Shown: positions 3,098-32,101 of the stretch, piece after piece
How the letters are laid out: each line of letters starts with the position of its first letter
Numbering within the stretch: the stretch's first letter is position 1
Origin: Candidatus Moraniibacteriota bacterium
GTDB lineage: Bacteria; Patescibacteriota; Minisyncoccia; Moranbacterales; UBA1568
Reading direction: 5' to 3'
Length of the DNA stretch: 64,000 bases
Assembly (NCBI GenBank): GCA_016699975.1
Contig: CP064994.1
Location: 65,222-129,221 of the forward strand
Made by a program: the position numbers and the translations under genes
The notes under the pieces: generated by a model
Told to the model about the DNA's origin: nothing
Databases searched by the model: none
The model's input: only the letters and a program-made list of their open reading frames with translations

Positions 3098-3587
3098 ATG
3101 CGCATCCTCGGTATTGATCCTGGAACGGCGACCGTAGGATGGGGCATTCTCGAAGGAGACGGGGATCGAATGGTCGCCCTTGCCTACGGACACATTTCAA
3201 CGAGTCCCACACTCCCGCTTCCAGAGCGGATAGGCGAAATAGCACGTGACCTTCGAACCCTGTGTCGCCTTCACCATCCCGAAGAAGCCTCCGTCGAAAA
3301 AATATTCTTTTCAAAATCAAAAGACCGTGATTGCGGTGAGTCAAGCAAGGGGCGCTATTCTCTTGACGCTCGAAGAGCTTGGCATTAGGCTTTTCGAATA
3401 CACGCCGCTTCAGATCAAGCAATCACTCACAGGATATGGTCGCGCCGACAAACGACAAATGCAGCTCATGGTAAAAAGCGTTTTAAAACTCCATGAGATT
3501 CCCCGCCCCGACGACACAGCGGACGCGCTTGCAATCGCCCTCTGCCACAGAAACAGTCGCGCTATGAACACCATCCTCGGAAAGTAG
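3098..3587 (+). CDS. ruvC: Holliday junction resolvase RuvC (reading frame broken by +1 indel near 3313-3316)
   Basis: ORF 3098..3388 gives the RuvC N-terminus (MRILGIDPGTATVGWGIL). The C-terminal two thirds (KTVIAVSQARG...ADALAIALCH) reads in the next frame from about 3318. Removing one A from the A4 run restores FFSNQKTVIAV, which matches RuvC. Confidence 0.8.
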
Positions 3588-5939: not shown

Positions 5940-5985
5940 GGGGCTTGAGAGTGCCTCTTATTCGAATTTAGCGGAAAGGTATTTT

Positions 5986-6915
5986 ATGAAAGTCTTATTT
6001 CTTCTTGGCCATCAATCAGCCAATAACCATTCAAAAAAATTCCAGAGTAAATTCAGAGATTTTTTTCAATACGCAAGCGAAAGAACTTCTATAAAATTTT
6101 ATATATCAAATATTGAAGACTATGATACGAAACAAAAGCTGTTCTCTCATGCATTTGTAAGAAAATGGAATTCGTGGGACAAAGAGTTCCTTGTAAAGCC
6201 AGATATTATTTACGATAAAACATCGTACTTCCTTTCTCAGAAAAATTTAATGGAAATAAAAGAGGATATTTCTCAAAATTTTCGCTTCCTCAACCCATTG
6301 GAATTCAATAGAATTCTTACTGATAAGTGGGAGACGTATACTGTCATTCCGGATATACATCCGAAAACCATTCTCTTTCAAGAGAACGATGACTCGAAAA
6401 AAATCTTGGATATATCATCTTCATTAGTTGTGATAAAGCCACGATACGGATTCGGTGGAAAAGGCGTCACTGTTTCAACAAAAGAAAATTTCAAGCCAAT
6501 AAAAACTCCTTTCATCGTGCAGGAATTTATCGAAACTAGTGCCGGCATACCAAACATAACAAAGGGTCGCCATGACCTTCGAATATTCCTCAAAAATGAA
6601 ACTCCATTCTACTCAATAATACGCTCCCCTCAAAAAGACCCTTATATCGCAAACATAAATTTCGGTGGCGCATTGAAAGTAGTGCCGCTCGAGAAGATTC
6701 CGAGATCAGCATTCAGAGTCATCAACACCATCAGCAAAACCTTTTCTCGTTTCCCTAAGAAGCTCTACTCAATCGATCTATTTTTTGATAGGAATCAAAA
6801 TCCTTGGGTGGTAGAATGTAATTCTCGTCCAGGAATCATCCTTCATAAGAGTGAGCTCCCTTATCGTGAATTCTATTACGATCACCTTCTTGATTTTTTT
6901 CAACAATCTCTATGA
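5986..6915 (+). CDS. second ATP-grasp family ligase (RimK/cyanophycin-synthetase-like)
   Basis: Motifs VVIKPRYGFGGKGV and VVECNSRPG are ATP-grasp hallmarks. The gene is AT-rich compared with its neighbours. An AGG-rich RBS precedes the ATG. Confidence 0.65.
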   Translation: MKVLFLLGHQSANNHSKKFQSKFRDFFQYASERTSIKFYISNIEDYDTKQKLFSHAFVRKWNSWDKEFLVKPDIIYDKTSYFLSQKNLMEIKEDISQNFRFLNPLEFNRILTDKWETYTVIPDIHPKTILFQENDDSKKILDISSSLVVIKPRYGFGGKGVTVSTKENFKPIKTPFIVQEFIETSAGIPNITKGRHDLRIFLKNETPFYSIIRSPQKDPYIANINFGGALKVVPLEKIPRSAFRVINTISKTFSRFPKKLYSIDLFFDRNQNPWVVECNSRPGIILHKSELPYREFYYDHLLDFFQQSL

Positions 6916-8183
6916 AGATAATAACTATTACTGGGACAAAGGGGAAAACCACCATAACAAGAGCTCTCAGTGCCGTGCTTCATCGATTTGGGGAAACGAC
7001 TCTTCGAGTAGATACGGATGGCTACTACATCAATGAAAAACAAGAAGGAACTCTCGAAGAGAGCAAAAATCTCTATGGCCTTGTTCCTACCGTCTCACCC
7101 GGGAAGTACCTCCTCTCTATGAAAAGATACTATCCAGATTTTGTTGCTATCCTTGAGGCAGCCCTTGGAAGCGGCGGAAAATCAGGAAGAGGCTATGGAC
7201 TTCATACTATAGGGATATTTTCCAACGTCCTCGAAGATCATATGGGTATAGGTAAAATAAGAACAAGGTTGGATATAGCAAAAAGAAAAAATTTTATTTT
7301 TTCAGGTATTGATGTGGGCGGCTATGCCATCTTCAATGCAGATGATCGACTTGTCTGTTCGCAATTAAAACAAATCCCCGATTTCCGTTCTGTCCATCTT
7401 GTTCCTTGCGGTATCTCAAATCGCTTTTTCGACATTGAAAATCACCTTCAAAATGGAGGAAAAGCAGTTACTATCGTCGATGATTCCATCGTCATTCGAG
7501 CAAGAGAAGGCGACCAAAAAATTCTTTCAGTAAAAGATGTTTCATGGACATTCAATGGAAAGTATAGACCCTCCGTAGAAAATCTTCTTTTTATCGTTGG
7601 GGGACTCTATGCCTTCTTCGAGGAAAAGATCCCTCAGAGAGCTTTGCAAATTCTCAAAGAGTATCACCTCAACAGAGACGGGGGGAGACTATCACTTTTC
7701 GAAAATAAAGATGGCATCAAAGTCTTAATAGATTTCGCGCACGAAAAATACTCACTTTCAGAAATTGCAAAACTCGCACATAAACTCAAGAAAAGTAAGA
7801 AGAATAAGACTATCGGGATTTTGCGGTTAGCGCCAGACAGAACCGATAAAATGATTTTCGAAACCGGAAAATTCATTGCCCCTTCTTTTGATCATTTGAT
7901 AATTTATGACAAAATAGATGGCGTTCATAAAATGAAATATATCGGTAAAAAAACAAATATCGTACGAAACATTGGTGAGGTTTCTGACATTTTCCTGAAA
8001 GGAGCTCTGAGTGCAAAGAGAAAAAATATGGTAGAGAAAATACTCCTTGAAGAAAACGCTGTAAGGAAGGCTATCAAAATAGCCTGCCCAGGAGATGTCA
8101 TAATTTATATATGCAATGACGATCATAAAAAAAGTATCACTTATATGCAAAAATATCTCCATGCTAGTAGAAGAAATTCGTAA
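6912..8183 (+). CDS. Mur ligase family protein resembling the C-terminal domain of cyanophycin synthetase CphA
   Basis: The N-terminal P-loop ITGTKGKTTITRAL matches the Mur-ligase GTNGKTT motif, and ILEAALGSGG...NVLEDHMG matches the CphA/MurE central-domain pattern. Its start overlaps the stop of the preceding ATP-grasp gene, implying translational coupling. Confidence 0.7.
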   Translation: MKIITITGTKGKTTITRALSAVLHRFGETTLRVDTDGYYINEKQEGTLEESKNLYGLVPTVSPGKYLLSMKRYYPDFVAILEAALGSGGKSGRGYGLHTIGIFSNVLEDHMGIGKIRTRLDIAKRKNFIFSGIDVGGYAIFNADDRLVCSQLKQIPDFRSVHLVPCGISNRFFDIENHLQNGGKAVTIVDDSIVIRAREGDQKILSVKDVSWTFNGKYRPSVENLLFIVGGLYAFFEEKIPQRALQILKEYHLNRDGGRLSLFENKDGIKVLIDFAHEKYSLSEIAKLAHKLKKSKKNKTIGILRLAPDRTDKMIFETGKFIAPSFDHLIIYDKIDGVHKMKYIGKKTNIVRNIGEVSDIFLKGALSAKRKNMVEKILLEENAVRKAIKIACPGDVIIYICNDDHKKSITYMQKYLHASRRNS

Positions 8184-8335: not shown

Positions 8336-11185
8336 ATGGATCACCTGAAAACGGTACTGAGAGAAGCTCGTGCTGCGTGGCGGCGGGAGCGAAATAATCC
8401 TCATTCGTTTGCATCCACGATAGCGACTTCGGCACCCGGAAGATTCTTCTCAAAGATTTTTGCACGACAAAAAATCGGCACGACATCCTTCATTCGCGGA
8501 CCCCTCGGCACTATGAATGTTTCTTCGAATACTCTTTCACGAACACCATCGCCGCGCGACCCCAAACCCCGCGCGGGATTTTGGAAATGGGTACTTCGAA
8601 TCGCAATTGGAATTTTTGTGGGAGGCTTCCTCGCGGTCGTCGGCGTTTTCGCCTATTTTGCAAAAGATCTGCCCAGCCCTGGAAAAGTGAACAGCCGATT
8701 TATCGCCGAGTCGACCAAAATTTTCGACCGCACCGGGACACACCTCCTCTACGAAGTTCACGGCGAGGAAAAACGAACGATTATTCCCTTTTCTGAAATG
8801 CCACAGGTAATCCGCGCCGCCACCATCACTTTGGAAGACCGGGATTTCTATAATCACTATGGTATCAAGCTCGATTCCATCCTCCGTGCCCTCTTCAAGG
8901 ACTTTGTCAAAGGCGGATCAAGGCAGGGCGGCTCCACAATTACGCAGCAGTTTGTAAAAAACTCCCTCCTCACGCCAGAGAAAACACTGACCCGAAAGAT
9001 AAAGGAAGCGATTCTGTCGATAGAGATGGAACAAAAATTTTCGAAAGATGAAATTCTCGCGATGTATTTGAACGAGATTCCCTACGGCGCCAATGCTTAT
9101 GGAATCGAAGCGGCTTCGCAAACTTTTTTCGGAAAGAACGCAAAAAATCTCACTGTTGATGAAGCGGCCCTTCTCGCCGTCCTCCCGAACGCTCCCACAT
9201 ACTATTCTCCGTACGGCTCCCACCTCGACGAACTGAAAGCGAGACAAAAAAATGCGCTTACCCAAATGGCCGCTCTCGGCTATATCACCAAAGAGGCCGC
9301 TGAAGAAGCAAAACAAGTGGAGACCCTCGACAAACTCGTGCCACAACGAGAAGCGATCGCTGCGCCGCACTTCGTCATGTATGTGAAGGAATATCTTGCC
9401 AGGCGCTACGGCGACGAAGAAATCGAGCAAGGCGGGCTGCGAGTCATTACCACTCTCGACTGGGACAAACAGCAAGCCGCAGAAAAAGCGGTTTCGGAAG
9501 GAGCCGAGAAAAATCTTCGCTACAATGCGGAAAATGCCGCGCTCGTTGCGATCGATCCGAAGACCGGACAAATTCTCGCTATGGTTGGTTCGAAAAATTA
9601 CTTCGATACCAAAATAGACGGGCAGGTGAACGTCACCATTCGCGACCGCCAGCCGGGATCCTCCTTTAAGCCTTACGTCTATCTCGCTGCGTTCACCAAG
9701 GGCTATGTGCCCGAGACAATTCTTTATGATGTGCCCACCGAATTTCCGACCGATGACGGAAAAAATTACGCGCCACAAAACTACGATGGAACATTTCATG
9801 GACCTGTCTCGCTCGCAAAAGCGCTCGGCGGATCCCTCAATGTCCCGGCTGTCAAAACGCTCTACTTAGTAGGAGTGAATGATGCCATCGAACTCTCAAA
9901 GAGTCTCGGCATCACCACTCTCACGGAGCCAAAGCGCTATGGCCTTTCTCTCGTTTTGGGAGGAGGCGACGTCAAACTCCTCGATCATGTAAGTGCCTAC
10001 GCAACGCTCGCAACGGGTGGCATACGACGGGAAAAAACTGCCATTCTTCGTATCGAAAACTCGAAGGGCGAAGTGCGGGAAGAATATACTCAGTCGCCTG
10101 GAGAGCGCGTCGTTGGCGAAAAATTTGTCGCCATGCTCGATTCCGTTCTCTCCGAGAACGGAAACCGAGCGTGGATCTTCGGGGAAAATAATCCTCTGCG
10201 GTTCAACAATCGAGCCGTCGTTGCCAAGACCGGTACTACCAACCTCTTTAAAGACGCCTGGACGGTTGGCTATACCCCTTCCCTGGCGGCAGGCGTCTGG
10301 GTAGGAAACAATGATGCCTCTCCCATGAAGCTCGGGGCCGACGGCTCCTATGTCGCCGCTCCCATTTGGCGAGCATTTATGGACAAGGCCCTCGAGAACA
10401 CCGGGACAGAAGAGTTTCCGAAATACCGTCCCGAAGAAGAAATCGCACCGCGCGACGAAAACGGCAACGTCAAAAAAGAAGAGCAAAAAGATGAGAATGC
10501 CGAACAAGCTCCTTCATCCGACACGACATCCAAAGGCGTTCCTGATCCCTTCGAAACCGTCTTCCCGAAAATTGAAAAGCCGCTTCTCGGTGGCTATATG
10601 GAAAAACAAGAAGCCCTCAAAGTCTGTCGCATCCCAGGGAAGGATGATGAATACTGTCTTCCGAGCAAATATTGCCCCGAGAGCGAAGAAGTGAAGCGGG
10701 ACTTCGTAAGCGCAAACGATATTTTGGCCTATGTGGATCGTGACGATCCAAGAGGATCGATCCCAGAAAAACCCGAGCGCGACCCGCAATACAAAGCCTG
10801 GCAAAAAGCTGCGAAAGATTGGTACCAAAAGGATCGCAAAAGAATTTTCTCCGCCCCGCCCGAAAAAGAATGTTCCGAAGAAGATTTCGGCTCCAAGTTC
10901 GATCCCGAGATCTCCCTCTCTGTTCCCGATGAAACAGACTCGTCTTCACTCTCTATTTCCGCAAAAGGAAAAGCGCCTTATGGCGCCGAATCACTCGAAA
11001 TATTTGTCGACGGCGAAAGAATCGCCTCGGACGGAGGAGCTTCACTCTCCACCGATTACTCCATTCCTGATGGAAAGCGAGGGAGCACTCTCTCGATCGA
11101 AGCACGACTCAAGGATAAACTCGGAAACGAAGCGAAAGATACGAAAGATGTCCGCACGAAAGCCCCTGAAACAACGACTCCGTAA
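8336..11185 (+). CDS. ponA: class A penicillin-binding protein (transglycosylase/transpeptidase) with long C-terminal extension
   Basis: A TM anchor is followed by the glycosyltransferase-51 motifs (EDRDFYNHYGI, RQGGSTITQQ) and the transpeptidase motifs (SSFKP, SLN, KTGT). The last ~250 aa are an additional Cys-containing, Ig-like region. An alternative start is the Met at 8513. Confidence 0.9.
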   Translation: MDHLKTVLREARAAWRRERNNPHSFASTIATSAPGRFFSKIFARQKIGTTSFIRGPLGTMNVSSNTLSRTPSPRDPKPRAGFWKWVLRIAIGIFVGGFLAVVGVFAYFAKDLPSPGKVNSRFIAESTKIFDRTGTHLLYEVHGEEKRTIIPFSEMPQVIRAATITLEDRDFYNHYGIKLDSILRALFKDFVKGGSRQGGSTITQQFVKNSLLTPEKTLTRKIKEAILSIEMEQKFSKDEILAMYLNEIPYGANAYGIEAASQTFFGKNAKNLTVDEAALLAVLPNAPTYYSPYGSHLDELKARQKNALTQMAALGYITKEAAEEAKQVETLDKLVPQREAIAAPHFVMYVKEYLARRYGDEEIEQGGLRVITTLDWDKQQAAEKAVSEGAEKNLRYNAENAALVAIDPKTGQILAMVGSKNYFDTKIDGQVNVTIRDRQPGSSFKPYVYLAAFTKGYVPETILYDVPTEFPTDDGKNYAPQNYDGTFHGPVSLAKALGGSLNVPAVKTLYLVGVNDAIELSKSLGITTLTEPKRYGLSLVLGGGDVKLLDHVSAYATLATGGIRREKTAILRIENSKGEVREEYTQSPGERVVGEKFVAMLDSVLSENGNRAWIFGENNPLRFNNRAVVAKTGTTNLFKDAWTVGYTPSLAAGVWVGNNDASPMKLGADGSYVAAPIWRAFMDKALENTGTEEFPKYRPEEEIAPRDENGNVKKEEQKDENAEQAPSSDTTSKGVPDPFETVFPKIEKPLLGGYMEKQEALKVCRIPGKDDEYCLPSKYCPESEEVKRDFVSANDILAYVDRDDPRGSIPEKPERDPQYKAWQKAAKDWYQKDRKRIFSAPPEKECSEEDFGSKFDPEISLSVPDETDSSSLSISAKGKAPYGAESLEIFVDGERIASDGGASLSTDYSIPDGKRGSTLSIEARLKDKLGNEAKDTKDVRTKAPETTTP

Positions 11186-11251
11186 CACAGAGGCGTGAGG
11201 AAGCACAAGAAGAAGAAAGACAGGAAGAAAACACCTGAATACTCAAAAAGA

Positions 11252-11295
11252 GCGCCCTTTCTCGTACTGTGCGAGAAAGGGCGCATTTCTCTTTC
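11252..11295 (+). terminator. rho-independent terminator (13-bp perfect stem, T-rich tail)
   Basis: Stem GCGCCCTTTCTCG, loop TACTGTG, stem CGAGAAAGGGCGC, then ATTTCTCTTTC. It lies 67 nt after the PBP stop. Confidence 0.6.
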
Positions 11296-11401
11296 AATGC
11301 TCTATTGATTACTCATCAATTCAATAAAATAATGTAAACAAAAGCGAATTTTGTGAAAGAAGAAAGGGTTCTTTTTGAAGAAATCTGAGCGTATTTCAAT
11401 A

Positions 11402-11426
11402 AATATAGGCCACAAATATAGGCCAC
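11402..11426. repeat. tandem direct repeat AATATAGGCCAC x2
   Basis: Two adjacent 12/13-nt copies sit in the 400-bp non-coding gap between convergent genes. Confidence 0.5.
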
Positions 11427-11698
11427 GGTAAGTTTGAGCAGTATCTCTTTTCGTTTCTCTTGCAAAAAAATGACAGAAAGTCATTCCTCTCGAGAATTTT
11501 TCGAAGAAACAAAAACATATTTCCTCGTACGAGATTCCTCGCATTTTCAATCACTTCTTCACCGGGGACAAGGCCTGTCCTAAGCAGCAACACGAGTATG
11601 GGGAATCACATTTTCTTGCCCACTCATGAGTTTTCTCCAACTCAATTGTTTTTACAAGAAACGCATCTTTTTCTTCCAGGACTCCTCTCAATTTCCTC

Positions 11699-12292
11699 CT
11701 ATTGCTTCCGGAGGCTTTTAATCTCTTCTGTGAGCGACTGAACGAGGATCTCTATCTTCTCCAATTTTCGATCCGTCTCGGCTTTCTCATCCTTCTCTTT
11801 CCTTTCTTCTTCGCCGATATCTTCCACATCCTCCTGAATGCCATCCACGTCCTTCTGAATATCCTCGACGTCGTCCCCGATTTCTTCCACTTCTTTCTGA
11901 ATTCCCTCGACATCTTCGCCGATTTCTTCGACGTTTTCCTGAATCCCTTCAATATCTTCGGAAATGTCTTCTACATCTTCGCGAATATCTTCGATATGTT
12001 CGTGCACCTCGGTAATGTCTTTTGCCTGACGATTCACAGTCATCTGAATAAAGATCGCGAGATAAATCGCCTCGAGCGAGACGAGTGTTGTGAGGAGAAG
12101 GAGAATTTGATCGAAAGAGAATCCGAAAAACGAAAGCGTAAAGATGCCCACAAAAAGAAACGTGTGCACAAGAAGCGACATCGGAGACCCAATAGAACGC
12201 GCAAACCGCTCCGCGCCTCGCTCAAGTGGCGAAGTTGCAAAGGGGGAGCGCTGCTCTTCTGGAAGTTTCGGTTTATCGAGTGGGTTCGACAT
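11699..12292 (-). CDS. DUF1003 family membrane protein with acidic tandem-repeat C-terminal tail
   Basis: The two-TM core FDQILLLLTTLVSLEAIYLAIFIQMTVNRQAKD matches the DUF1003 signature (FDPYPF..LNL.LS.EAA..AP.ILMSQNRQ). The tail consists of about seven imperfect 8-aa repeats (EDVEDIxx). Confidence 0.6.
   Translation of the reverse strand: MSNPLDKPKLPEEQRSPFATSPLERGAERFARSIGSPMSLLVHTFLFVGIFTLSFFGFSFDQILLLLTTLVSLEAIYLAIFIQMTVNRQAKDITEVHEHIEDIREDVEDISEDIEGIQENVEEIGEDVEGIQKEVEEIGDDVEDIQKDVDGIQEDVEDIGEEERKEKDEKAETDRKLEKIEILVQSLTEEIKSLRKQ
11806..12000 (-). repeat. 24-nt period imperfect tandem repeats (coding, acidic octapeptide repeats)
   Basis: Repeating units of the form gatatcttccacatcctcctgaat... 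encode E/D-V-E-D-I repeats within the DUF1003 gene. Confidence 0.5.
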
Positions 12293-12322
12293 AGAAACAG
12301 TCTATCACGACTCTCTCTCCGG

Positions 12323-12360
12323 AAAAACAAAAAAGAGGAGATCGAACCACCGATCTCCTC
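12323..12360 (-). terminator. rho-independent terminator on minus strand (10-bp stem GAGGAGATCG/CGATCTCCTC followed by U-run)
   Basis: On the minus strand the hairpin is followed by TTTTTTGTTTTT. It lies just downstream of the small membrane-protein gene ending at 12374. Confidence 0.5.
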
Positions 12361-12373
12361 GAAACCTTCACCC

Positions 12374-12601
12374 TTACAGTACGTTCATTGAACTCACTGC
12401 AAGGGTGATAACATACCCCGCAATCCATGCGAGAATCCTCCCTATCAACGTCTCTTCTCGATCGGCGACGATAATGCCAATCGAGCAAAGCGCCCAGGAA
12501 GGGAGAAAAAATACTGACTGGTCGTGCGGCATTACTATTTCCAAAATTACCGCGATGACCACGTAGGGGAGCGCTTCCAGCGCACCCCAGATTATTTTCA
12601 T
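12374..12601 (-). CDS. small membrane protein (hypothetical, 75 aa)
   Basis: A strong SD (AGGAGGCGGAAATG) precedes the ATG, and there are two hydrophobic helices. Confidence 0.45.
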   Translation of the reverse strand: MKIIWGALEALPYVVIAVILEIVMPHDQSVFFLPSWALCSIGIIVADREETLIGRILAWIAGYVITLAVSSMNVL

Positions 12602-12677
12602 TTCCGCCTCCTCTCGTATCCCAACCCGGATATTGGGACACTCCCCAAAGAACATTCGCGACTCCGGCGCGAAAAAA

Positions 12678-13019
12678 CTACTTCTCCTGCTCCGACAACT
12701 CCCCGACATCCGCCGGTTTATCGTTAAAGCAGTTTTCCTCCACCCAGCACTTCCTGTGCACGGGAGTGAGTGGACCAAATATTGGCCCGTCTTCCGCAAG
12801 CAAAATATCTCTCGCGGATTCAAAACTCCTGTATGGCGGGCATATCCTCCTTGCCGCATGCTCCCGCACAGTTGGGCCGATATTTCCGACCGCCTGTCCA
12901 GTAACTGCATACACGAGGCTACTCGCGTATGCAAACCATTCAACATCCGATTTCATCGGATATTTTTCACGAGCAGCTTGGACCGCTCGCAAAAATAAAA
13001 TGCTTATGTCATCATCCAT
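12678..13019 (-). CDS. hypothetical protein (113 aa)
   Basis: An AAGGAGGG SD sits 7 nt upstream of the ATG. No recognisable domain. Confidence 0.45.
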   Translation of the reverse strand: MDDDISILFLRAVQAAREKYPMKSDVEWFAYASSLVYAVTGQAVGNIGPTVREHAARRICPPYRSFESARDILLAEDGPIFGPLTPVHRKCWVEENCFNDKPADVGELSEQEK

Positions 13020-13031
13020 TGCATTCCCTCC

Positions 13032-13355
13032 TTACTTGCCGCCAAACTTCTTCGCAAGGGCGGCGAGCAAATCCGCGGAAGCCGGTTTCTGCCCTCCTTC
13101 CTCCTGAGGATTCGGGAGCGGATTCATCCCTGCTTGCCTCCGAATTCGATCAATTTTCTCCCTTTCTTTCGGATCTTTCGGAGGAAGCTTGTCCAGTTTC
13201 CCGTTTACCAGACGGAACCCGCAATCCGTTGCGCGAGCGCGAATATCTTCCATGATCGCTTCCGCCCACTCGGCAAGTTCCGCCGAATATTCTTTCTCGT
13301 CTTCCGGGGACTGCCAATACGAGCGGAGAGGAAACTCTTTTAGAGTCTCATCCAA
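13032..13355 (-). CDS. hypothetical protein (107 aa)
   Basis: Protein-like composition, and it lies in the same minus-strand operon. No recognisable domain. Confidence 0.4.
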   Translation of the reverse strand: MDETLKEFPLRSYWQSPEDEKEYSAELAEWAEAIMEDIRARATDCGFRLVNGKLDKLPPKDPKEREKIDRIRRQAGMNPLPNPQEEGGQKPASADLLAALAKKFGGK

Positions 13356-14809
13356 CTCATACAGGTCAGCCCGAACTCCATAAAAATATTTCTCGCCTCT
13401 TCAAAGGCGCGAACCGCCCTTTCATGGGCTGTGTTGGCAGCTTCCCAGCCTGCGACAATTCCCTGCCGGCGCGAAACTTCCAGCTCATACGCCTCCTTGC
13501 CTTCGCGGAGAATCTTCTCAATAATTCTCTCGCAAGCCTTTCCATAGGCGCTCTCCCATTTTTCCCGATCGGACTCGGGAACAAATTTGAGGCACCCGCG
13601 GTATGGGTTGTTGCGAGCAAGCTCACGGATCTCCTTCCGGGCATACTCACTCGCCTGCTCGAGAATTTCCCGAGCTCCCTGGAGCATCCCTTCTTCACTC
13701 ACTTCCTGAGAGAAGAAAAGTTTCTGCCGTTCTTCTCCGGAAAGCCCCCAGGAGATTACTCGCCTGGTCACCCAGGTCTCGTAACACCCCCCAGACCGAA
13801 ACCCATCATCGGACTCCGGATAACTCACCCACTGTCGAGATGAAACGGTTTCCATACCGATTTCCCCTGGAGCCTCGAAAGACGCTCGTTCCTTCTCCGC
13901 TTCGAACAGTTTCCGTACCGGTTCGGTTACGGAGAAAGTTTCTTCCGCCGCCTGTTCCGGCGACGGAATCGAACGCCTCATTCTTTCCGCGATTTCTCGC
14001 TGTTCGGCCGCCGGAACAAGTTCCCAGAGCTTGTCCGGACAACTAATCCAGGACCCTCGACCCGAGAGAACCTCGGGGGAGAAAGTCACCTCCGGAAACC
14101 GGCATAACCGGAATGTTCCGGTTATGCTAATTTCATTTACGGGGTTCCATCCTTCCGGGACCTTGGAAAGCGTACCCGGCACATACTCCGCCTCCCACGC
14201 CCGAGTCGCCTCTTCCCAGGAAAGGCGCTTTTCTCCGGGGAGTTTCGGCTCATCTAGTCCAACCCCTCCATACAGGAGGCGGTTCGGATCCATACACCGA
14301 TCGCCGACTCCATTCCAAAAAAATCGAACAGTGTTGTGCTTGCTCGATTCCGTCCGGTCAGGCAGACCGAAAAGCGCAAAGACTTTCCAGGGATCTGGTC
14401 CCTGGAAAACCTCGCGTCGATCCTTGACTTCCCGATACTGGCGGTTTTCCTCTGGTTCATTGGTAGGCGTCCCGCCTAAGTGGGACCAATCTTCGAATCC
14501 TTCTTCGACGCACCGCCATTCATGGCGGCGGAATCCGGAAATCGGTTCGCCGACCGCTATCCAACCAAACCGAGCTGGCCGGATCGGCCTTACAAAGAGA
14601 ACTCCTTTCCTCTCACCCGGCTTCGTTTCCCCAGTAATCTCCACAAGGAAGAGCCGATTTTCTTCCAGCTCGATACCCTTCGGGTTCCCCCGATTGGCGC
14701 GATCGACAAAAACGATTTTTTTAGGGACATCGCCCGCTTGAATTGTCCCTTTCCATCCATCATTTCCATTCGTCCACAAAATAAGTGCGATTTTTTTCAC
14801 GTTCACGAG
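13340..14809 (-). CDS. large hypothetical protein (~490 aa)
   Basis: A GTG start is preceded by GGAGGAG. Minus-strand composition is protein-like, whereas the overlapping plus-strand ORFs are S/R/P-rich antisense artefacts. No recognisable domain. Confidence 0.5.
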   Translation of the reverse strand, partial: LVNVKKIALILWTNGNDGWKGTIQAGDVPKKIVFVDRANRGNPKGIELEENRLFLVEITGETKPGERKGVLFVRPIRPARFGWIAVGEPISGFRRHEWRCVEEGFEDWSHLGGTPTNEPEENRQYREVKDRREVFQGPDPWKVFALFGLPDRTESSKHNTVRFFWNGVGDRCMDPNRLLYGGVGLDEPKLPGEKRLSWEEATRAWEAEYVPGTLSKVPEGWNPVNEISITGTFRLCRFPEVTFSPEVLSGRGSWISCPDKLWELVPAAEQREIAERMRRSIPSPEQAAEETFSVTEPVRKLFEAEKERASFEAPGEIGMETVSSRQWVSYPESDDGFRSGGCYETWVTRRVISWGLSGEERQKLFFSQEVSEEGMLQGAREILEQASEYARKEIRELARNNPYRGCLKFVPESDREKWESAYGKACERIIEKILREGKEAYELEVSRRQGIVAGWEAANTAHERAVRAFEEARNIFMEFGLTCMSWMRL

Positions 14810-14953
14810 AAAACTCCTCCGCGTTTTTAAAAAAACAGACAACTCTCTCCGCCTTCGATTGTTTTTGAAGTAATCAAAGGCGAGGTTGAGCGGGGAGGGA
14901 TGCGATATCACTGTATGCACCCTCCCTCCCGCTAGTACAGATCTAATCTGGCG

Positions 14954-15751
14954 CTACCGGTATTTCGGTGCGCCCCTAACTGTCCCTGTTTCTTTCCAGC
15001 TGCCGTCTTCTTGTTGCTCGAAGACGGCATACATTTGTTTGCCAAAATCATAGCAAACCCCCACCCTTTTTGATCCGAGTGGGGATGGGATCAATTCTAT
15101 GTTTCCGTTTCCGGGGTTACCCTTCCCCGAATGACGGAGGAATGCTTCCAATCCCCGAGTATTCCATTCCTCCCAAATGGGTCGCATCCTATCGACGCCT
15201 TCCTGCGCCTCCTGGAGGGACTTTGCTCGGACACTCCAGTCCGAGAAAACTTCCTGCTCTAGAGTAACCAATACTACAGAGTCATCATCGAAGTAAGCAC
15301 GGATGCTCACTCCAGGGATCGTCGCCATCACCCTTTCTCGGAGCACTTCGACTTCTTCTTCCCTTTTCTTTTCCGCGTCGGCCTCCTCTTGCTCCGCACT
15401 CTTGTAGAAACGGACACGGCCCGGATTGAAATTTTCGGGAAGAATTACCCCCTCCCCAAATCCATTCCGCCACTGAAATTCATAGATTATGATGGCGTGA
15501 GGAATCTTGTTATGCAACTCCTTTGCCTCCGTTTCGCCAAATCTTCCAAATTTGGCATAAATTACAGTGTAACCCTTGAGATCAATTCCCTCCAGCCCCT
15601 GCTTTGGCAGGATAGCTTCCGGCATGCTCTCTTTTGAGAGGCAAACTGTAACCGCTTCTCCCTTACGACGAAACTTAATACTTAATTTCCATCTTTTCTC
15701 TCCTTCAATTTTAAGTAATAAAGAAATTGAAACAAAAAAATTCCACCACAT
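14954..15751 (-). CDS. hypothetical protein (265 aa)
   Basis: Long minus-strand ORF lying 36 nt downstream of the shared ~70-nt repeat. No recognisable domain. Confidence 0.5.
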   Translation of the reverse strand: MWWNFFVSISLLLKIEGEKRWKLSIKFRRKGEAVTVCLSKESMPEAILPKQGLEGIDLKGYTVIYAKFGRFGETEAKELHNKIPHAIIIYEFQWRNGFGEGVILPENFNPGRVRFYKSAEQEEADAEKKREEEVEVLRERVMATIPGVSIRAYFDDDSVVLVTLEQEVFSDWSVRAKSLQEAQEGVDRMRPIWEEWNTRGLEAFLRHSGKGNPGNGNIELIPSPLGSKRVGVCYDFGKQMYAVFEQQEDGSWKETGTVRGAPKYR

Positions 15752-15786
15752 TAACCTAACCGTTTCCGTTAAAATTAATGTGGGTT

Positions 15787-15856
15787 GAATTTTTAAAGAA
15801 CTTCTTCCTCCGAACCTTCAAATCAAATACTTTGAAGATTCTATTGGAAGGAGGAG
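15787..15856 (-). repeat. ~70-nt promoter-like repeat, copy A (upstream of gene 14954..15751)
   Basis: About 80% identical to copy B. Conserved blocks AAAGAACTTCTTCCTCCGAACC and TTGAAGATTCTATTGGAAGG flank a variable hairpin. On the minus strand it reads TTGAAG...N18...TTTAAAAAT. Confidence 0.5.
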
Positions 15857-15977
15857 CCATGCTATGTACTCCTCCAAAAAAATCAAACGTTTTCACGCAC
15901 ATTTTTTCTCGAAGCCGTGCGCAGGCTCCGCTCCTCCCGCGTCTGTCTCACCACAGTCGCGAAAAGAAGATTTTGGA

Positions 15978-16898
15978 CTAGCGGGTCATCATGACCCGCA
16001 TCGCCCTCAATACAAGGGCGATTCGCTCCACTTCGGCAGCGCGCTGGAACGCGCCACCGAAGCCTTCAAGAACAACCAGCGCCGGGCGCTTGTTGTTGGT
16101 CGCTTCCTGCGACCATCTTTCCTGGCAAACGGCGCGAAACTTCAGCGCCATTTCATCATCCTTGAATCCCACCTGGATTCGCCCTTTTTCAGGGCGGGTC
16201 CAGATGGCCCATTTATTTCCCTTGGCCGATTCGGCCAAGACACAATCTCCGCGATCCCCTTCGTACACCTTTTCTCCGTGTACGATGGAAATTTCCTGGG
16301 AAACGTTTAAAGGGCTTCCCGCCCTTTTTAACCATTTCTCAAAGATCTCCTTTTTCTGCAGAGTATCAATCTTCCAGGGCCCACCGCAGTGGGCCTTCAG
16401 AATCACTCGGCGATCCTCAAGTGGTACGATTTCTTCTCCTTGGAGAATCGCTTTTTCCATAGCGAGAAGTGGGTCCTCCTCCTCGCCGGCAGCCCGACGG
16501 GCTGCTGCTTCCATGCAGATTCTTTCCGTCACGGCATCCATGCCGTCGGGGTCGACGAGCCGAATAAGTCCCTGAACTGACTCCGGCGCGACCTCAATGG
16601 CCGCATCGAAAATATAATCCTTGTCAATAGCAAGGTGGGGGCACTCCAGCTCCAACAAACTTTGTATTTCGGGGGTCATATCGACTCCCCCCTCATTGTC
16701 CAGGGAGATCAGGCTCTCTCCGGATAAAAATCTCCCAACCTCTTCTTGGTAGTCGGAATACTCTTCTCTCGAAAAAACAATTTCTTGGAAATTTAGAGCC
16801 ACTTTCTTTCTCCTCTTCTTTGGAGTTTGAACCCTTCCTGCCATGGCGGACAGTGCTGAAGGGCTGCCGAAGAATTCGACGCACGACTTTGGAAACAT
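15978..16898 (-). CDS. hypothetical protein (306 aa)
   Basis: Long minus-strand ORF lying 36 nt downstream of copy B of the repeat. No recognisable domain. Confidence 0.5.
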   Translation of the reverse strand: MFPKSCVEFFGSPSALSAMAGRVQTPKKRRKKVALNFQEIVFSREEYSDYQEEVGRFLSGESLISLDNEGGVDMTPEIQSLLELECPHLAIDKDYIFDAAIEVAPESVQGLIRLVDPDGMDAVTERICMEAAARRAAGEEEDPLLAMEKAILQGEEIVPLEDRRVILKAHCGGPWKIDTLQKKEIFEKWLKRAGSPLNVSQEISIVHGEKVYEGDRGDCVLAESAKGNKWAIWTRPEKGRIQVGFKDDEMALKFRAVCQERWSQEATNNKRPALVVLEGFGGAFQRAAEVERIALVLRAMRVMMTR

Positions 16899-16934
16899 CC
16901 TTTCAAAACCCCGCGTCGAATTCTTGGCTTTCTC

Positions 16935-17004
16935 GAATTTTAAAGAACTTCTTCCTCCGAACCCTCAAACATGTTTCAGATTGAAGATTCTATTGGAAGG
17001 GAGA
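16935..17004 (-). repeat. ~70-nt promoter-like repeat, copy B (upstream of gene 15978..16898)
   Basis: Same conserved blocks as copy A, with the same 35-36 nt spacing to the start codon. Confidence 0.5.
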
Positions 17005-18819
17005 GCGAAAATTCCATTTTCGCTCTCCACATTCGCATGAACTTTCGATGGCATCCCTTTTGTAAGAGCCTTCTACTCATTCATACTTCCCGGCAAGTCA
17101 GTCCGGGCTTCTTTTTTTCCTCGTCCATTTGGGGACGGGTCCGGACTCCTCGCCGGCACAGGCGGCCTTTCTCCAGGCGCGCCACTCAAACAGGATGTCT
17201 CTTCGCTCTGGAGACACACTTGCTTGAGTGACGTACCTATTTCTTTCTCTCCTTTGTAATCGGAACTGCTCCGATCTTCGGACAGCGAAGAAACCTCCGC
17301 ACTGTCCGAAGACCAAAACATACTTCCCAAACAAAGAAATTGAGAAATATTCAAAGAACAGGGACCAGACCTTCTGTGGAAACTCTTTTGCTTTCACAAA
17401 AGAACCTCCATTGAAGGGGCAAGAGAGATTCCATCTCTTCTTGCCCGTAACCTTTCGTGCTCGTCCATGAGCACATATTTTGGCTTTGCGATCGGATCGC
17501 TTCCGAGGGCATCACCCCCCACCCCTCAAAGCCCGAGGTTCTCCGGTTTCTCGTTAACCGGCATCGCCACTCCTCGACCGCCCGATGTCCGGCGGCCTCA
17601 AATGGAGTTTCCCCACCTAACCTAGTTGATGACTCGGTACTCGATGAAGAGAAAAGTCGCTTTCGCGATTTCCTCTTCCGAGTACTCGTGGCGATCAGTG
17701 AGACGTGGAAGACCACGTACTCCCATGACCACCACCGAGTCACCGACCTTGACCACTACGCGCGGCGGCGCTTCGCGTCGATCGTTGGCTTGTGGCTTGG
17801 GTTCAAGCAGGATTCAACACCCTGCGAAACCACAGCCTTGGCCTCATCGACGCTCAGCAGTCGACGTTCGATGGTTTTTGCACCATCGAACATCGAGTCG
17901 GCGAGGGCAAAACCAAAGAAAATTTTTTTCATGGTTTTCTGCCTCTCACTCGTTCCAGAAAGCAACGTGCGCACTTCACCATGATCCGATCATGACTTAT
18001 AGCGCTTCCTCGAAACCTCCGAGGGTTACCCTCCAAAACAAGTGCAAACCGGAGCCCTCACAACGCGCGAGCCTCATACGCGCTCGGTTTTCTGAAAAAC
18101 CGAGAAAATCCGCTATTAATATAATGAAAAGAACAAAAAAAGCACTCTCAAAGGAATGCTTTTTGCAAGATATCTTGAGCAGCTAAACATGACTAAAACC
18201 GCCCAAGAAAGATCTTGCAAGAAATCTTCCTGTGGTTTGTCATGTTTAAAAAATTTCAAGGAACGAAAGCTGATCATCAACCTCTCTTCGAATACGCTTC
18301 CAAATATCTTTTCGTTTCCGAAGACATTCCTCGTGACGAAAGCTGGTTAGACTTCATCGCGAGACGATGTCTTGAGAAAGACTCAAAGAATCGTTCGAAT
18401 CGTGGCGCATTCGGAACGGAGGTACTCGCATGCTATTTGAAACGCCGCGCTGGACGCTTTCGGGATTCTTTCGAAATCCCCTACATGCAAGGACGCTCAC
18501 ACCTCCTGGTGACGGCCCCGGAAACAGCCTGCCACTGAAGCGGCGCTTCTCTACGGAACCTCGCCCAATTCTCTCAGTGTTTTCCTTCGCTCGTCTTGTT
18601 CGTCCATCTTCCATTCGATCTCCCTCCTCGCGAGAAACGGATCGAACGAATACGAACAAGATCGGAAGCGAAATGGAACGCTTCCCGGAACGTTGCCAGA
18701 AAGAGATATGCAAGCGAGGTCGAAGAGAAACGCGCGATCGGGAAGGACAAAGAGAAAAATCATATCCTCCGATTCCCGGCATCCTCATCGTTTCACCTGC
18801 AAATCCCTGTTCAGCAGAA

Positions 18820-19075
18820 AAAGTGTCAATGTGCCTTTTCTTATTCTTCTTCTCTCTTGCGTCACATCCCGACTTCTGTTCCCCTTTTCTTTTTTCATCG
18901 TGACACGCCAGTATATATCAAGAATTTACTTTTGTCAATTCTTTGTGTCATTTATACCATTTTCTCTCATTTTTAAACTATTGAAGAGAATTTTTTTGGC
19001 TTTATATATACTTTTATGTGTCACGTAATTTTGACATTAGAAGAGATTTTTGCTAGCATAAAAGTGTCAAAATTT
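18820..19075 (+). promoter_or_regulatory. cluster of GTGTCA / TGTCAC-N8-TGACA palindromic motifs upstream of TrmB-family regulator
   Basis: At least seven GTGTCA/TGACAC copies, including the palindrome TGTCACGTAATTTTGACA at 19019-19036. Candidate operator for autoregulation. Confidence 0.35.
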
Positions 19076-19089
19076 AAAGAATACTCCCT

Positions 19090-19905
19090 ATGTATGCCTC
19101 TTCTCTCGAGCACATCGGGCTCCGGCCCGAGCAGGCTCTCATCTACGAATCGCTCATGAAATCGGGTCCGTCTTCGGCAGGAGAAGTGCACAAAGCCGTC
19201 CCCCTCAAGCGCGGACTCGTCTACAAGGTGCTCGACGAGCTGGTGCTTCTTGGTCTCGTAGAGAAAAAGAGGGTGGAAACAGAAAAAACCATTCGATTCG
19301 AGGTGTGTCATCCGCTCAAGCTCAAAGCGTTTTCGGAGCGGCGCGAAACAGAAGCAAAAAACGCCACCCTCGCGCTCGAAGGCGTTCTCCCCTCTCTTAT
19401 CTCCGACTATAATCTGGTTTTGGGACAGCCCGGCGTACTAGTGTTCGAAGGACTAAGCGGCGTAAAAAAAGTGCTCGAAGACAACCTTGATCACAATCCG
19501 GAGAAAAAAATTTTTACCTTTTCTGACCTGGACGGATATACAAAATACCTCACCGACTGGAACAAGTGTCACTATGCCCCCAAGCGAAAGCGTCTTGGTA
19601 TTTATGAAAAGGCGCTTGTCTCGAATACCGAACAAGCGAGAGAATTCCTCAAAAACTATGAAGCGAACGAATTTACGGAAATACTTCTTATCGATTACGC
19701 GCGCTACCCCATGAAAACAGAGGTGAATATCTATAGCGGAAAAGTATCATTCGTTACTTTTTCGGAAAATTCCCTCATCGGCGTCATTATCGATAACCGA
19801 GAAATTCATGACACCCTTCTTACAATTTGGAAACTTGCCTGGGACTTGGGGCGAAAATCATTTGCTGAACTCCAACCCTCATGGACCCAGCGATTCGGAG
19901 CCTGA
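19090..19905 (+). CDS. TrmB-family (winged-helix) transcriptional regulator
   Basis: N-terminal HTH LGLRPEQALIYESLMKSGPSSAGEVHKAVPLKRGLVYKVLDELVLLGLVEKK is typical of TrmB, and the C-terminal domain is TrmB-like. Confidence 0.7.
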   Translation: MYASSLEHIGLRPEQALIYESLMKSGPSSAGEVHKAVPLKRGLVYKVLDELVLLGLVEKKRVETEKTIRFEVCHPLKLKAFSERRETEAKNATLALEGVLPSLISDYNLVLGQPGVLVFEGLSGVKKVLEDNLDHNPEKKIFTFSDLDGYTKYLTDWNKCHYAPKRKRLGIYEKALVSNTEQAREFLKNYEANEFTEILLIDYARYPMKTEVNIYSGKVSFVTFSENSLIGVIIDNREIHDTLLTIWKLAWDLGRKSFAELQPSWTQRFGA

Positions 19906-20031
19906 GATGCCCCTCGAAGACTCTTCAGAATCCAATGATCAATCTTTCTTACTCTTTTATTTTTTTTCGAGAAATTTTCATCACCCTGCTACAAATATCT
20001 ATCCTGAGGCGGAGCAAAAAACTGAAACCAC

Positions 20032-25032: not shown

Positions 25033-26561
25033 TTACGTTCGGTAGAGTCGCTCCCTGAGACTCACAATGTCTTCTTTCAATCGACCGTCTTTCTCAATAT
25101 CCTTTCGGACGCGCTCGATCGCATGGAGTACGGTTGTGTGATCACGTCCACCGAAATACTGTCCGATCGCCGAAAGAGACACCGAGAGTTCCTGTCGCGC
25201 AATGTACATTGCCACCTGACGCGCAAAAGCGATATGCTTCTTTCGTCCCTTTTTTTGGAGTTCTTCTTCCGGCACATTATAGAATTCAGCGGAGGCCTTT
25301 GCGATACTTTCGAGGGTCACCGTTTGTTTGTTGACCGTGATAAGATTACCGAGAATCTTTTCGATATAGGGAACAGTCGGATGCACTTTCTGAAATTCAG
25401 CGGACGCGAGTACACGGTTGAGCGCACCTTCGAGCTCACGCGCATTGTTGGTAATGTTTTCTGCGATAAAACGAACGCATTCGTCATCGAGGACATTTCC
25501 TTTTTCCGTAAGCTTGAGGCGAAGAATCGCCATGCGCGTTTCAAGATTCGGGCGGCTCACATCCGCAATCATCCCACCTTCAAAACGACTTTTGAGACGA
25601 TCTTCCAAGGTCGGGATCGCTTTCGGGGTACGGTCGCTCGTAATCACCACCTGCTTGTTTGCAAGGTGAAGTGTATTAAAGACATGAAAAATTCTTGTTG
25701 CGTTTTCTCACGCCCGGAGAGAAACTGCACGTCGTCGATGAGGAGCACGTCAATTTCGCGGTATTCGTTCTTGAAGGTTTCCATCGACTGATTCTTCAGG
25801 CTGTTGATAAGTTCGTTGGTAAACTCTTCCGATGTGGTGTATCGAACTCTCTTTTCCGGTGACCGCTTCAGAACCTCGTTCCCGATCGCCTGAATAAGAT
25901 GCGTTTTTCCTACCCCAACCACGCCGTAAATGAAAAGAGGGTTGTAAAGCGTTCCCGGACTCTGTGAAACCGCGAAACACGCAGCGCGAGCGAGCTCATT
26001 GTTCTCTCCCACGATAAAATTTTCAAATGTGTAGCGTGGATTTAAGTTCGATCGACGCTTTCTGGAAGATGCGCCCCCTTCCTCAAGAGCCGAGGTTCCG
26101 GAAGGCGCGAACATATGCGGAAGCCGGGGCGACACGACCTGAGACGGCGAAGAGGAAGAAATTCGAACCGGGAGAATGCCATTCGCACTCGCAAGAGAAG
26201 GGGCGACACTCGTCGGAAGAGAGGGCGCGGTAGGAGAGGAGACTGGTGTTACTTCGGGAGTTCTCCTTCCAATATCCATGGCTTTCGGAGTGGCGATTCC
26301 CTCAAGATTCGGCTGATAGAAACAGGAGATTTCTCGAATCGAAGGATCCTGGCGTTCAAGCGCCTGGAGAATAATGTGGTTATACCGATTTTCGAGCCAC
26401 TCTTTTGTAAAGGGGTTTCCCACTGCAATCCGAGCCACACCATCTTCGAGCGCTACGAGACGAGTACGTAAAAACCACGTCTCAAAATTCGCCTTCGAAA
26501 CCGAAAGCTCAAGTTCCCCCAATACAACCTTCCAAAGCTCATCGAGCGACATACAATACAA
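25033..26561 (-). CDS. dnaA: chromosomal replication initiator DnaA (frame broken by 1-nt deletion in T/A homopolymer near 25686-25690)
   Basis: The N-terminal domain is followed by the AAA+ region (GVVGVGKTHL, IDDVQFL). The frame then shifts, and the alternate frame reads [22 protein letters not shown] followed by the DnaA C-terminal DNA-binding domain (HTTVLHAIERV). Confidence 0.85.
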
Positions 26562-31997: not shown

Positions 31998-32101
31998 ACC
32001 GTTCCGCGAAAATTTTTGAAACATTTTCCGCTTCCAATAGAAAGGCTGAGAGAAAGAGAGGAAAAGAGGTGTTTCTCAATCGAGACTGTAAGGCGCTTCA
32101 T

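Follow-up and report, generated by a model that had tools for sequence, protein, structure and literature searches.

A recurrent double-hairpin RNA element between the cistrons of a Candidatus Moraniibacteriota gene cluster: a candidate punctuation module

Hammerhead ribozymes flank single genes in the polycistronic RNAs of prophages and cleave these RNAs in vitro (Perreault et al. 2011, PMC3088659), and the twister ribozyme was found through a gene neighbourhood that it has in common with hammerheads (PMC6765202). RNase III cuts the early polycistronic RNA of phage T7 at five hairpin signals and leaves stabilizing 3' hairpins: after the single-strand cut, the hairpin caps and stabilizes the product (PMC3867540). 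In T4-type phages, short conserved intergenic motifs called promoter-early stem-loops (PeSLs) bracket variable small open reading frames (ORFs) at points of gene gain, loss and replacement (PMC2839356, PMC4122927). Here we describe an element, X-Y, that recurs in a minus-strand gene cluster within a 64-kb stretch of the chromosome of a Candidatus Moraniibacteriota bacterium (hereafter, the window). The window, which also encodes dnaA, dnaN, PBP1 and pcrA, comes from the chromosome of a Candidate Phyla Radiation (CPR) bacterium, from a region close to its replication origin. On the minus (gene-sense) strand, X-Y consists of a double hairpin, X, and a short single-stranded GUUCUUU motif, Y. With about as much confidence as doubt, we take X-Y to be an intercistronic RNA punctuation module that serves processing or stability and is not a promoter; it would be cut by an RNase or by itself, and its hairpins would cap the ends. 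X-Y is new, having no Rfam family and no copies in the searched databases, but its kind is already known, namely the intercistronic processing or stability element.

An original prediction made on the window described two copies of a promoter-like element of about 70 nt, with conserved blocks around a variable hairpin-forming core. Both copies are present: exact blocks of 22 and 20 nt lie within 15787-15857 and 16935-17006, and a repeat search paired 15791-15822 with 16938-16969 (97%) and 15832-15857 with 16981-17006 (92%). With up to three mismatches allowed, the 22-mer occurs exactly twice in the 64 kb (chance expectation 0.00), as does the 20-mer (0.03). Copy-to-copy alignment likewise bore out the conserved blocks and the divergent, hairpin-forming centre, which differs by 2 nt in length between copies. 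The same repeat pair is carried by two independent assemblies of the same species, L001 (from ENA) and L002 (from Logan; L numbers are our labels for loci), and is therefore not an assembly artefact. The extent of about 70 nt holds for the core and falls short of the full length, each copy having a further upstream hairpin, P1 (Table 1).

The order of parts in X is P1, UUCC, AAUA, a 10-13-bp P2 (GAAUCUUCAA...UUGARGGUUC), GGA and GGAA. P3 is the 4-bp helix UUCC/GGAA, which the AAUA/GGA internal loop separates from P2, and the Y motif GUUCUUUAAAA begins 4 nt after X in copies A and B. The two blocks of the original prediction are the two sides of P3 plus P2, together with Y. A third, diverged copy (module C) differs in sequence and has the same P1/P3/loop/P2 plan; all three window copies lie within 1.7 kb, on one strand and in one cluster. 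The length of the P2 loop varies among copies (10, 11, 12 nt and more). Sense-strand folding energies of the three modules were -30.9, -37.8 and -39.5 kcal/mol, with z values of -5.0, -6.5 and -7.0 against shuffled sequences (module C, -7.0). The antisense fold was weaker by 3.4 to 8.8 kcal/mol across the three modules, and by 7.6 and 8.8 kcal/mol for copies A and B. L004 carries the P1 loop of module A (15858-15868, minus strand; UACAUAGCAUGG) in two places, as UACAUGGAAUGA and UACAUGGCAUGG (1838-1848, 3142-3152), on stems that covary.

For further copies we used a covariance model that was built from five copies and then iterated and broadened; the extra copies came from contigs carrying homologues of the flanking genes (L012, L013 with two, and L021). 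Module A scored 77.9 bits in the sense orientation and 20.8 bits in antisense, and module C scored 27.3 bits (E 5.6e-5) with the five-copy model and 66.4 bits with the broadened one. The iterated model returned 21 matches, 18 of which were compared with the gene calls and found to be intercistronic and on the gene-sense strand (window, L004, L012, L013 and L021). Three were set aside: L011 3834-3900, a probable false positive that falls within a called gene; window 32001-32123, which is coding and scores 20 bits; and L004 912-988. No window copy beyond the three clustered ones scores well, and about 15 additional copies were found in related Candidatus Moraniibacteriota-like contigs.

The pattern of substitution in these copies is that of a structured RNA read on one strand. 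Among the nine best copies, 97.2% of the alignment cells were paired, and double-sided changes were seen at 19 of 24 pairs. This level was reached by none of 500 shuffles, and sliding the partner by 1-3 columns left 38-63% paired. G-U pairs account for 27 of 208 paired cells (manual count), including one nearly constant U-G in the middle of P2; because each is an A-C mismatch on the other strand, the fold is strand-specific. About 42 nt of X are near-invariant between genomes in which the flanking proteins share only 70% identity. Y shows the same strand preference: GTTCTTT occurs 28 times in sense and once in antisense in 30.7 kb of cluster DNA, where about 1.9 occurrences are expected per strand. 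In 16 of the 18 checked matches, GTTYTTT stands between -2 and +26 nt of the 3' end of X, the longer distances arising because one extra small hairpin (UCCGCC-loop-GGCGGA) intervenes. L012 has kept X with no adjacent Y.

Other devices stand at intercistronic boundaries in related clusters. A type III hammerhead in L019, perfect in its core and scoring 43.7 bits (E 9.5e-7), runs up to 6967, and GAGTTCTTTG follows from 6968, so that the hammerhead holds the position relative to Y that X holds elsewhere. The conserved 3' untranslated region (UTR) of the gene annotated as a 306-aa ORF is followed by X-Y in the window and by a hammerhead in L003, and in L005-L010 a hammerhead lies between the 245-aa gene and the next gene. 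At 26-44 bits, these hammerheads fall short of the Rfam gathering score (48.5) and would be overlooked by standard annotation. A tRNA-Gly(UCC) with encoded CCA lies between two small cistrons in L013 (2484-2554) and L021 (4534-4603). As hammerheads and tRNAs fill intercistronic slots, two of the four kinds of module are known RNA-cleavage signals. The gene caller had absorbed the tRNA-Gly of L013 into a 113-aa ORF; the real gene there encodes 60 aa, as in L015.

The modules also coincide with the points at which gene content changes. After the module that we call X1 comes the 306-aa gene, an HD_4 gene, or a non-coding RNA (ncRNA) with an 82-aa gene, a tRNA and a 60-aa gene, and gene content between modules differs in L012, L013, L021 and the window. 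In the 306-aa gene unit, the window and L003 are homologous from exactly Y to about 85 nt past the stop codon; in the comparison with L003/L004, these two breaks coincide with replacement boundaries of variable ORFs. The 3' UTR itself (window 15890-15975, minus strand; L003 1243-1330; L004 3011-3090) is kept across homologues that are 57% identical, with a covarying CUGUC-GUGA-GACAG hairpin and a second hairpin whose conserved loop is GGCUUCGAGAAAAAAU.

Set beside the closest described systems, X-Y shares with the prophage hammerheads the plan of repeated, sense-strand structured RNAs of about 60-100 nt between non-paralogous, mostly hypothetical genes, and differs in lacking the CUGANGA/GAAA core and the three-way junction and in not scoring against hammerhead models (no match at E<=5 over 11000-20000, and no CUGANGA...GAAA core in X). 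An enclosing helix that would make X a hammerhead-like three-way junction was rejected, as the flanks show no consistent pairing. As in T7, hairpins that are homologous to one another and have an asymmetric internal loop are found between one cistron and the next, and the architecture (4-bp P3, loop and 10-13-bp P2, with P1 stacked) is compatible with an RNase III signal; unlike the T7 signals, X has a P3 of only 4 bp, an abutting P1 and a downstream GUUCUUU, and its host is a CPR bacterium with no phage match to the locus. The coincidence with indel and replacement boundaries of variable ORFs is shared with the T4 PeSLs, which hold an early promoter and a terminator, whereas the modules hold no promoter-like site and are constrained in their RNA pairing. 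REP/BIME elements (repetitive extragenic palindromes and the bacterial interspersed mosaic elements that they form) are intergenic operon hairpins that can shield upstream mRNA from 3' exonucleases and are dispersed genome-wide in both orientations. X-Y, by contrast, is confined, as far as visible, to one gene cluster, always stands in the sense orientation and has a conserved internal loop. The attC sites of integrons have conserved ends and a variable, hairpin-forming centre, occur once per cassette boundary and are recognized by structure. In X-Y there is no RYYYAAC...GTTRRRY core pair and no extrahelical-base signature, the gene tables of the loci list no integrase, and GTTCTTT, with pyrimidines after GTT, is a direct and not an inverted motif.

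Database searches placed the element in no described family. Rfam 15 gave no match at the gathering threshold across the whole window and none at the element at E<=5 (11000-20000). ARAGORN found no tRNA or tmRNA in the window, and no tRNA-clan Rfam model matched the element. The exact 22-mer had no match in GTDB genomes or IMG/VR, and a degenerate two-block pattern had none in JGI metagenomes or GTDB genomes; the single IMG/VR match to that pattern was dismissed as chance, since it lies inside a coding region and was rejected by the covariance model. On inspection, the sequence of the internal loop and of Y did not fit a K-turn, loop-E, T-box or attC, and these readings were discarded. A leader peptide starting from UUG inside Y was also discarded: the window copies have no UUG, and the differences between the window and L003 include a 1-nt indel. 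Aligned copies with their flanks showed no terminal inverted repeats and no target-site duplication, which speaks against a miniature inverted-repeat transposable element.

Table 1. Positions of the modules, flanking genes and related features (window coordinates unless a locus is named)
Feature	Position	Strand	Remarks
Module A, P1 (GGAGGAG-UACAUAGCAUGG-CUCCUCC)	15850-15875	-	Stem covaries among copies
Module A, P3 (UUCC/GGAA), AAUA/GGA loop and P2 (GAAUCUUCAAA/UUUGAAGGUUC)	15805-15849	-	Holds both blocks of the original prediction
Module A, Y (GUUCUUUAAAAA)	15790-15801	-	The '-10' of the original prediction
Module B, P1 (GGAGAGCGAAAAU-GGA-AUUUUCGCUCUCC)	17000-17028	-	
Module B, P3, AAUA/GGA loop and P2 (GAAUCUUCAA/UUGAGGGUUC)	16952-16998	-	A-to-G change gives a G-U pair
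Module B, Y (GUUCUUUAAAAUUC)	16935-16948	-	
Module C, third, diverged copy (P1 GGGCAAGA..UCUUGCCC; P3 CUUC/GAAG; loop AAU/ACA; 13-bp P2)	17367-17451	-	
Module C, Y (GUUCUUUGAAUA)	17348-17359	-	7 nt after module C
Gene between the repeats	15978-16802	-	306-aa ORF; real product 274 aa from GTG 16802; no Pfam
Gene downstream of module A	14954-15692	-	245-aa family, no Pfam; ancestral start ATG 15692
5'-UTR hairpin after module B	16870-16925	-	25-nt arms; spurious ATG 16898 in loop
5'-UTR hairpin after module A	15735-15794	-	20-nt arms; spurious ATG 15751 in 3' arm
Non-coding unit between modules C and B	17034-17345	-	No conserved ORF; candidate ncRNA cistron
Terminator-like hairpin (18164-18137), then fourth GUUCUUU (18134-18128)	18120-18164	-	
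Sigma-70-type promoter-like site (TTGACA-17-TATACT)	18910-18938	-	Cluster head; 11 of 12; inferred operon promoter
Type III hammerheads, intact cores	L003 1413-1453; L005 6795-6849 (same in L006-L010); L019 6878-6970 and 7825-7870		Between or after cistrons

The genes that follow the modules bear directly on what the element can be, for the original prediction had argued for a promoter from a common spacing of 35-36 nt between each copy and an ATG. Homologues of the 306-aa ORF fall into only three clusters among 5.8 billion proteins, and all begin MALNFQ; in the window this start is GTG 16802, with an AGGAG ribosome-binding site upstream. Homologues of the 265-aa ORF downstream of module A begin MEIK(F)RRKGE, which points to ATG 15692, preceded by a GGAGAG site. 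The ATGs at 15751 and 16898 are merely those of the longest ORFs: that at 16898 falls within the loop of a conserved 25-bp hairpin, which L003 keeps with compensatory changes and without the ATG, and that at 15751 within an arm of a 20-bp hairpin. Measured to the real starts, the distances are about 135 nt (to GTG 16802) and about 98 nt (to ATG 15692). As the spacing was measured to spurious ATGs, the argument from it fails, and its identity in the two copies is a coincidence. The proteins encoded downstream of the two copies are not related to each other (BLASTP E 0.73), in line with the further claim of a shared cis element ahead of non-paralogous cistrons without gene duplication, and that claim we retain.

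A 7-nt tandem duplication (ATTAAGT ATTAAGT, 15686-15673, minus strand) directly after MEIK frameshifts the gene of the 245-aa family, so that the longest ORF reaches back to ATG 15751; a sequencing error is excluded by its presence in the independent assembly L001. Hypothetical protein IPL87_00365 of a Candidatus Moraniibacteriota metagenome-assembled genome matches the product of 14954..15751 at 100% identity, and the public annotation starts the 245-aa family gene at M43; both starts of the original prediction and one in the public annotation are thus wrong, a lesson for annotation. Near about 16637 (minus strand), the 306-aa family gene of the window lacks 37 residues (GIPQDDDGEPWRV...ASHN) that are present in L001/L002 and L003/L004; this loss is an in-frame deletion or a strain variant. 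Neither Pfam nor PHROGs holds a family for the flanking proteins, and a confident structure model of the 245-aa family protein has no recognizable RNA-binding fold. Protein-guided searches found no relatives of the protein labelled A2 in metagenomes and none of that labelled A3 in IMG/VR, and protein and DNA searches of a phage database gave no match.

One strong sigma-70-like site was found per cluster, at its head: that of the window and those at L013 94-122, L021 1481-1509 and L019 93-120 (TTGACA-17-TATNNT). The consensus scan of the window covered 14800-19200 and called no such site at either copy. Between modules C and B, the 3' 200 nt of the non-coding unit are about 80% identical to L013 (1815-2072), which exceeds the identity of the neighbouring proteins, with four compensatory pairs and a 2-nt indel; the unit has no Rfam match.

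We propose that the cluster is, most likely, transcribed as one polycistronic RNA from the promoter at its head, X folding co-transcriptionally, so that modules A, B and C would punctuate a single minus-strand cluster. Each module would precede the structured 5' UTR of a different cistron (the ncRNA-like unit, the 274-aa gene and the 245-aa gene). X-Y would then mark the cistron boundary post-transcriptionally, with an endonucleolytic cut at or next to the module separating the cistrons; the cutter could be a host or cluster-encoded RNase acting at the internal loop or at single-stranded Y, or the RNA itself. How stable each piece is would then depend on the stable hairpins, which would cap the newly formed ends. 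Related clusters would reach the same boundary by way of a type III hammerhead directly upstream of Y, or of an intercistronic tRNA, and the repeated modules may, as a side effect, provide recombination points for the exchange of gene cassettes.

Several points weigh against this proposal. Co-transcription, cleavage and the cleavage site are all matters that we infer, and the terminator-like hairpin at 18164-18137 stands between the head promoter and the modules, so that read-through has to be assumed. The 4-bp P3, and the helix of P3 plus P2 (14-17 bp), are short for a classical RNase III site. In the relatives Y follows only one of four distinct hammerheads, and GTTCTTT also occurs directly after some stop codons with no preceding hairpin (L013 1647, 5691; L019 5944, 7720; L021 3085, 8394). 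An internal promoter of another type may overlap Y. Alignments made by a model lean towards the structure modelled, though the margin here is large, and the sample is small: about ten distinct contigs from one narrow lineage.

The alternative put forward originally, that each copy is a shared promoter or operator that starts transcription of its gene, with a regulator such as the TrmB-family protein binding the inverted repeat of the hairpin, can point to a minus-strand TTGAAG or TTGAGG, 18 nt and TTTAAA, to the TAAAAT that copy B also offers, and to the start of the homology between the gene units of the window and L003 exactly at Y, as for the start of a transcription unit; the terminator-like hairpin upstream would make internal promoters useful. 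The '-35' had been read as TTGAAG in both copies, which is right for copy A, whereas copy B has TTGAGG. We nevertheless consider a promoter improbable. No sigma-70-like site was called at any copy, strong sites of this type standing only at cluster heads, and TTTAAA lacks the key A2 and T6; relatives read TGAAAT, with G at the critical -11. In L013 (1708-1830) and L021 (3149-3260) the blocks are conserved and a 17-20-nt hairpin lies between the '-35' and the '-10', L012 has X with no Y beside it, and in L013, L019 and L021 Y also occurs within the leader, 300-500 nt downstream of the canonical promoter. The variation in P2 loop length excludes a fixed dimeric operator, and the G-U-only substitutions and the 57-bit gap between sense and antisense indicate RNA. 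The spurious ATGs, the missing sigma-70-like call, the hexamer spacing broken in relatives and this RNA-type constraint together led us away from the promoter or operator reading, and with it TrmB as the cognate regulator, for the TrmB gene is divergent, has its own promoter, and nothing ties TrmB to the element. A purely DNA-level role seems to us very doubtful: the modules would be recombination substrates that shuffle cassettes, as PeSLs do in T4-like phages (PMC2839356, PMC4122927), or a scar, with no function as RNA. The original prediction had allowed for a recombination scar, and part of this stands, in that direct repeats bracket the 306-aa gene unit, the gene content of relatives changes exactly at the modules, and homology to L003/L004 ends at Y on one side and about 85 nt past the stop codon on the other. 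Recombination alone cannot explain the covariation, with its compensatory changes and G-U asymmetry, or the near-invariance of 42 nt at 70% protein identity, and it leaves the strict sense orientation unexplained; no recombinase or integrase lies beside the clusters in the gene tables, and terminal inverted repeats and target duplications are lacking. As a by-product, the modules probably do act as cassette boundaries, since it is exactly there that relatives differ in gene content.

Two further explanations keep the element an RNA. X, possibly with GUUCUUU, could be an undescribed self-cleaving ribozyme class or a ribozyme-like processing signal, a special case of the punctuation module that would be interchangeable with hammerheads and tRNAs in CPR polycistronic RNAs. 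X does hold the hammerhead slot, upstream of Y when compared with L019 and after the conserved 3' UTR when compared with L003, it is strongly conserved in and around the internal loop (C-AAUA-G / C-GGA-G) between covarying helices, and it matches no Rfam family; twister, pistol and hatchet were all found through such shared context (PMC6765202). Against this stand the simplicity of a two-hairpin fold with one small internal loop, in which no conserved tertiary contact or enclosing helix was found, and the concentration of conservation in the P2 stem sequence and not in junction nucleotides, and we give the idea a small chance. It also appears unlikely to us that X-Y is a regulatory RNA that is not cleaved, whether a leaky terminator or attenuator, a put-like antitermination element, a site for an RNA-binding protein or a stabilizer of the STAB-SD type that engages the 30S subunit through GGAGG. 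The two stacked hairpins resemble HK022 put, and in cryIIIA a purine-rich, GGAGG-type stabilizer, STAB-SD, lies upstream of the start codon; here a purine-rich GGAGGAA lies 100-135 nt upstream of start codons. A hairpin followed within 0-4 nt by UUCUUU was called terminator-like in the leaders of L013 (405-426), L021 (1794-1815) and L019 (607-622), and the conservation of the P2 stem suggests a protein ligand. The U-tract of the window copies, however, is short, interrupted and 4 nt from the helix, and copies A and B were not called terminators; the GGAGG is largely base-paired in the conserved fold, the modelled 245-aa family protein offers no recognizable RNA-binding fold, and the hammerheads and tRNA in equivalent positions would be left unexplained. 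An intercistronic punctuation module remains the reading that we favour.

Several other features of the cluster were noted along the way. Its head lies back to back with a divergent sigma-70-like promoter: between 18910 and 19059, the minus-strand site at 18938-18910 (11 of 12) is joined by a plus-strand site at 19031-19059 (10 of 12, with TG), which faces the TrmB-family gene (19090-19905). Should TrmB regulate the cluster, the expected place for its operator would be 18910-19059 and not the repeats. Sister clusters open with a P-loop domain that is fused to, or followed by, Csx3 (the Crn3 ring nuclease): L012 1-1179, L013 523-1646, L019 712-1878 and L021 1948-3084. This P-loop/Csx3 family, with 454 matches, is widespread in CPR bacteria; tblastn found no homologue in the window. 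Between the promoter and this first gene lies a conserved leader of 330-600 nt (L013 about 125-520, L021 about 1510-1945, L019 about 120-710), which has a long hairpin and then a U run (GCGGTTGG.AGATCTCTTC...CCAACCGCTTTTTGTT) and no Rfam match, and is a candidate attenuator or riboswitch.

The window version of the cluster looks partly decayed, given the frameshift, the 37-aa deletion, a split gene and an ORF-poor stretch at 17000-18900. What is a 629-aa gene in L001 is broken in the window near about 13383 (minus strand) into 526 aa and a 107-aa ORF (tblastn 14920-13382 and 13385-13083); this frameshift may be a long-read assembly error, and dnaA, too, seems to be split (25644-26561 and 25033-25650). 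Reading the frameshifted ORF 17932-17626 as DUF1874/AcrIII-1-like was set aside as a guess without Pfam support. Elsewhere in the window, three plus-strand genes stand in a row at 4512-8183: the first two are RimK-like, one of them encoding a glutamate ligase whose C-terminus is retropepsin-like, and the third, in a low-GC (38%) stretch, encodes a Mur ligase that is cyanophycin-synthetase-like.

Why bacteria and mobile elements put self-cleaving ribozymes between genes is an open question. Within one narrow lineage of ultra-small CPR bacteria, in clusters that, in their sister versions on related contigs, have Csx3 ring-nuclease genes at the head, four devices stand at equivalent boundaries (the hammerhead, the tRNA and two variants of the double hairpin), and GUUCUUU is common to most of these boundary modules, downstream of them. 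This amounts to a natural swap experiment: the role that the hammerhead has there is one that the new module probably shares.

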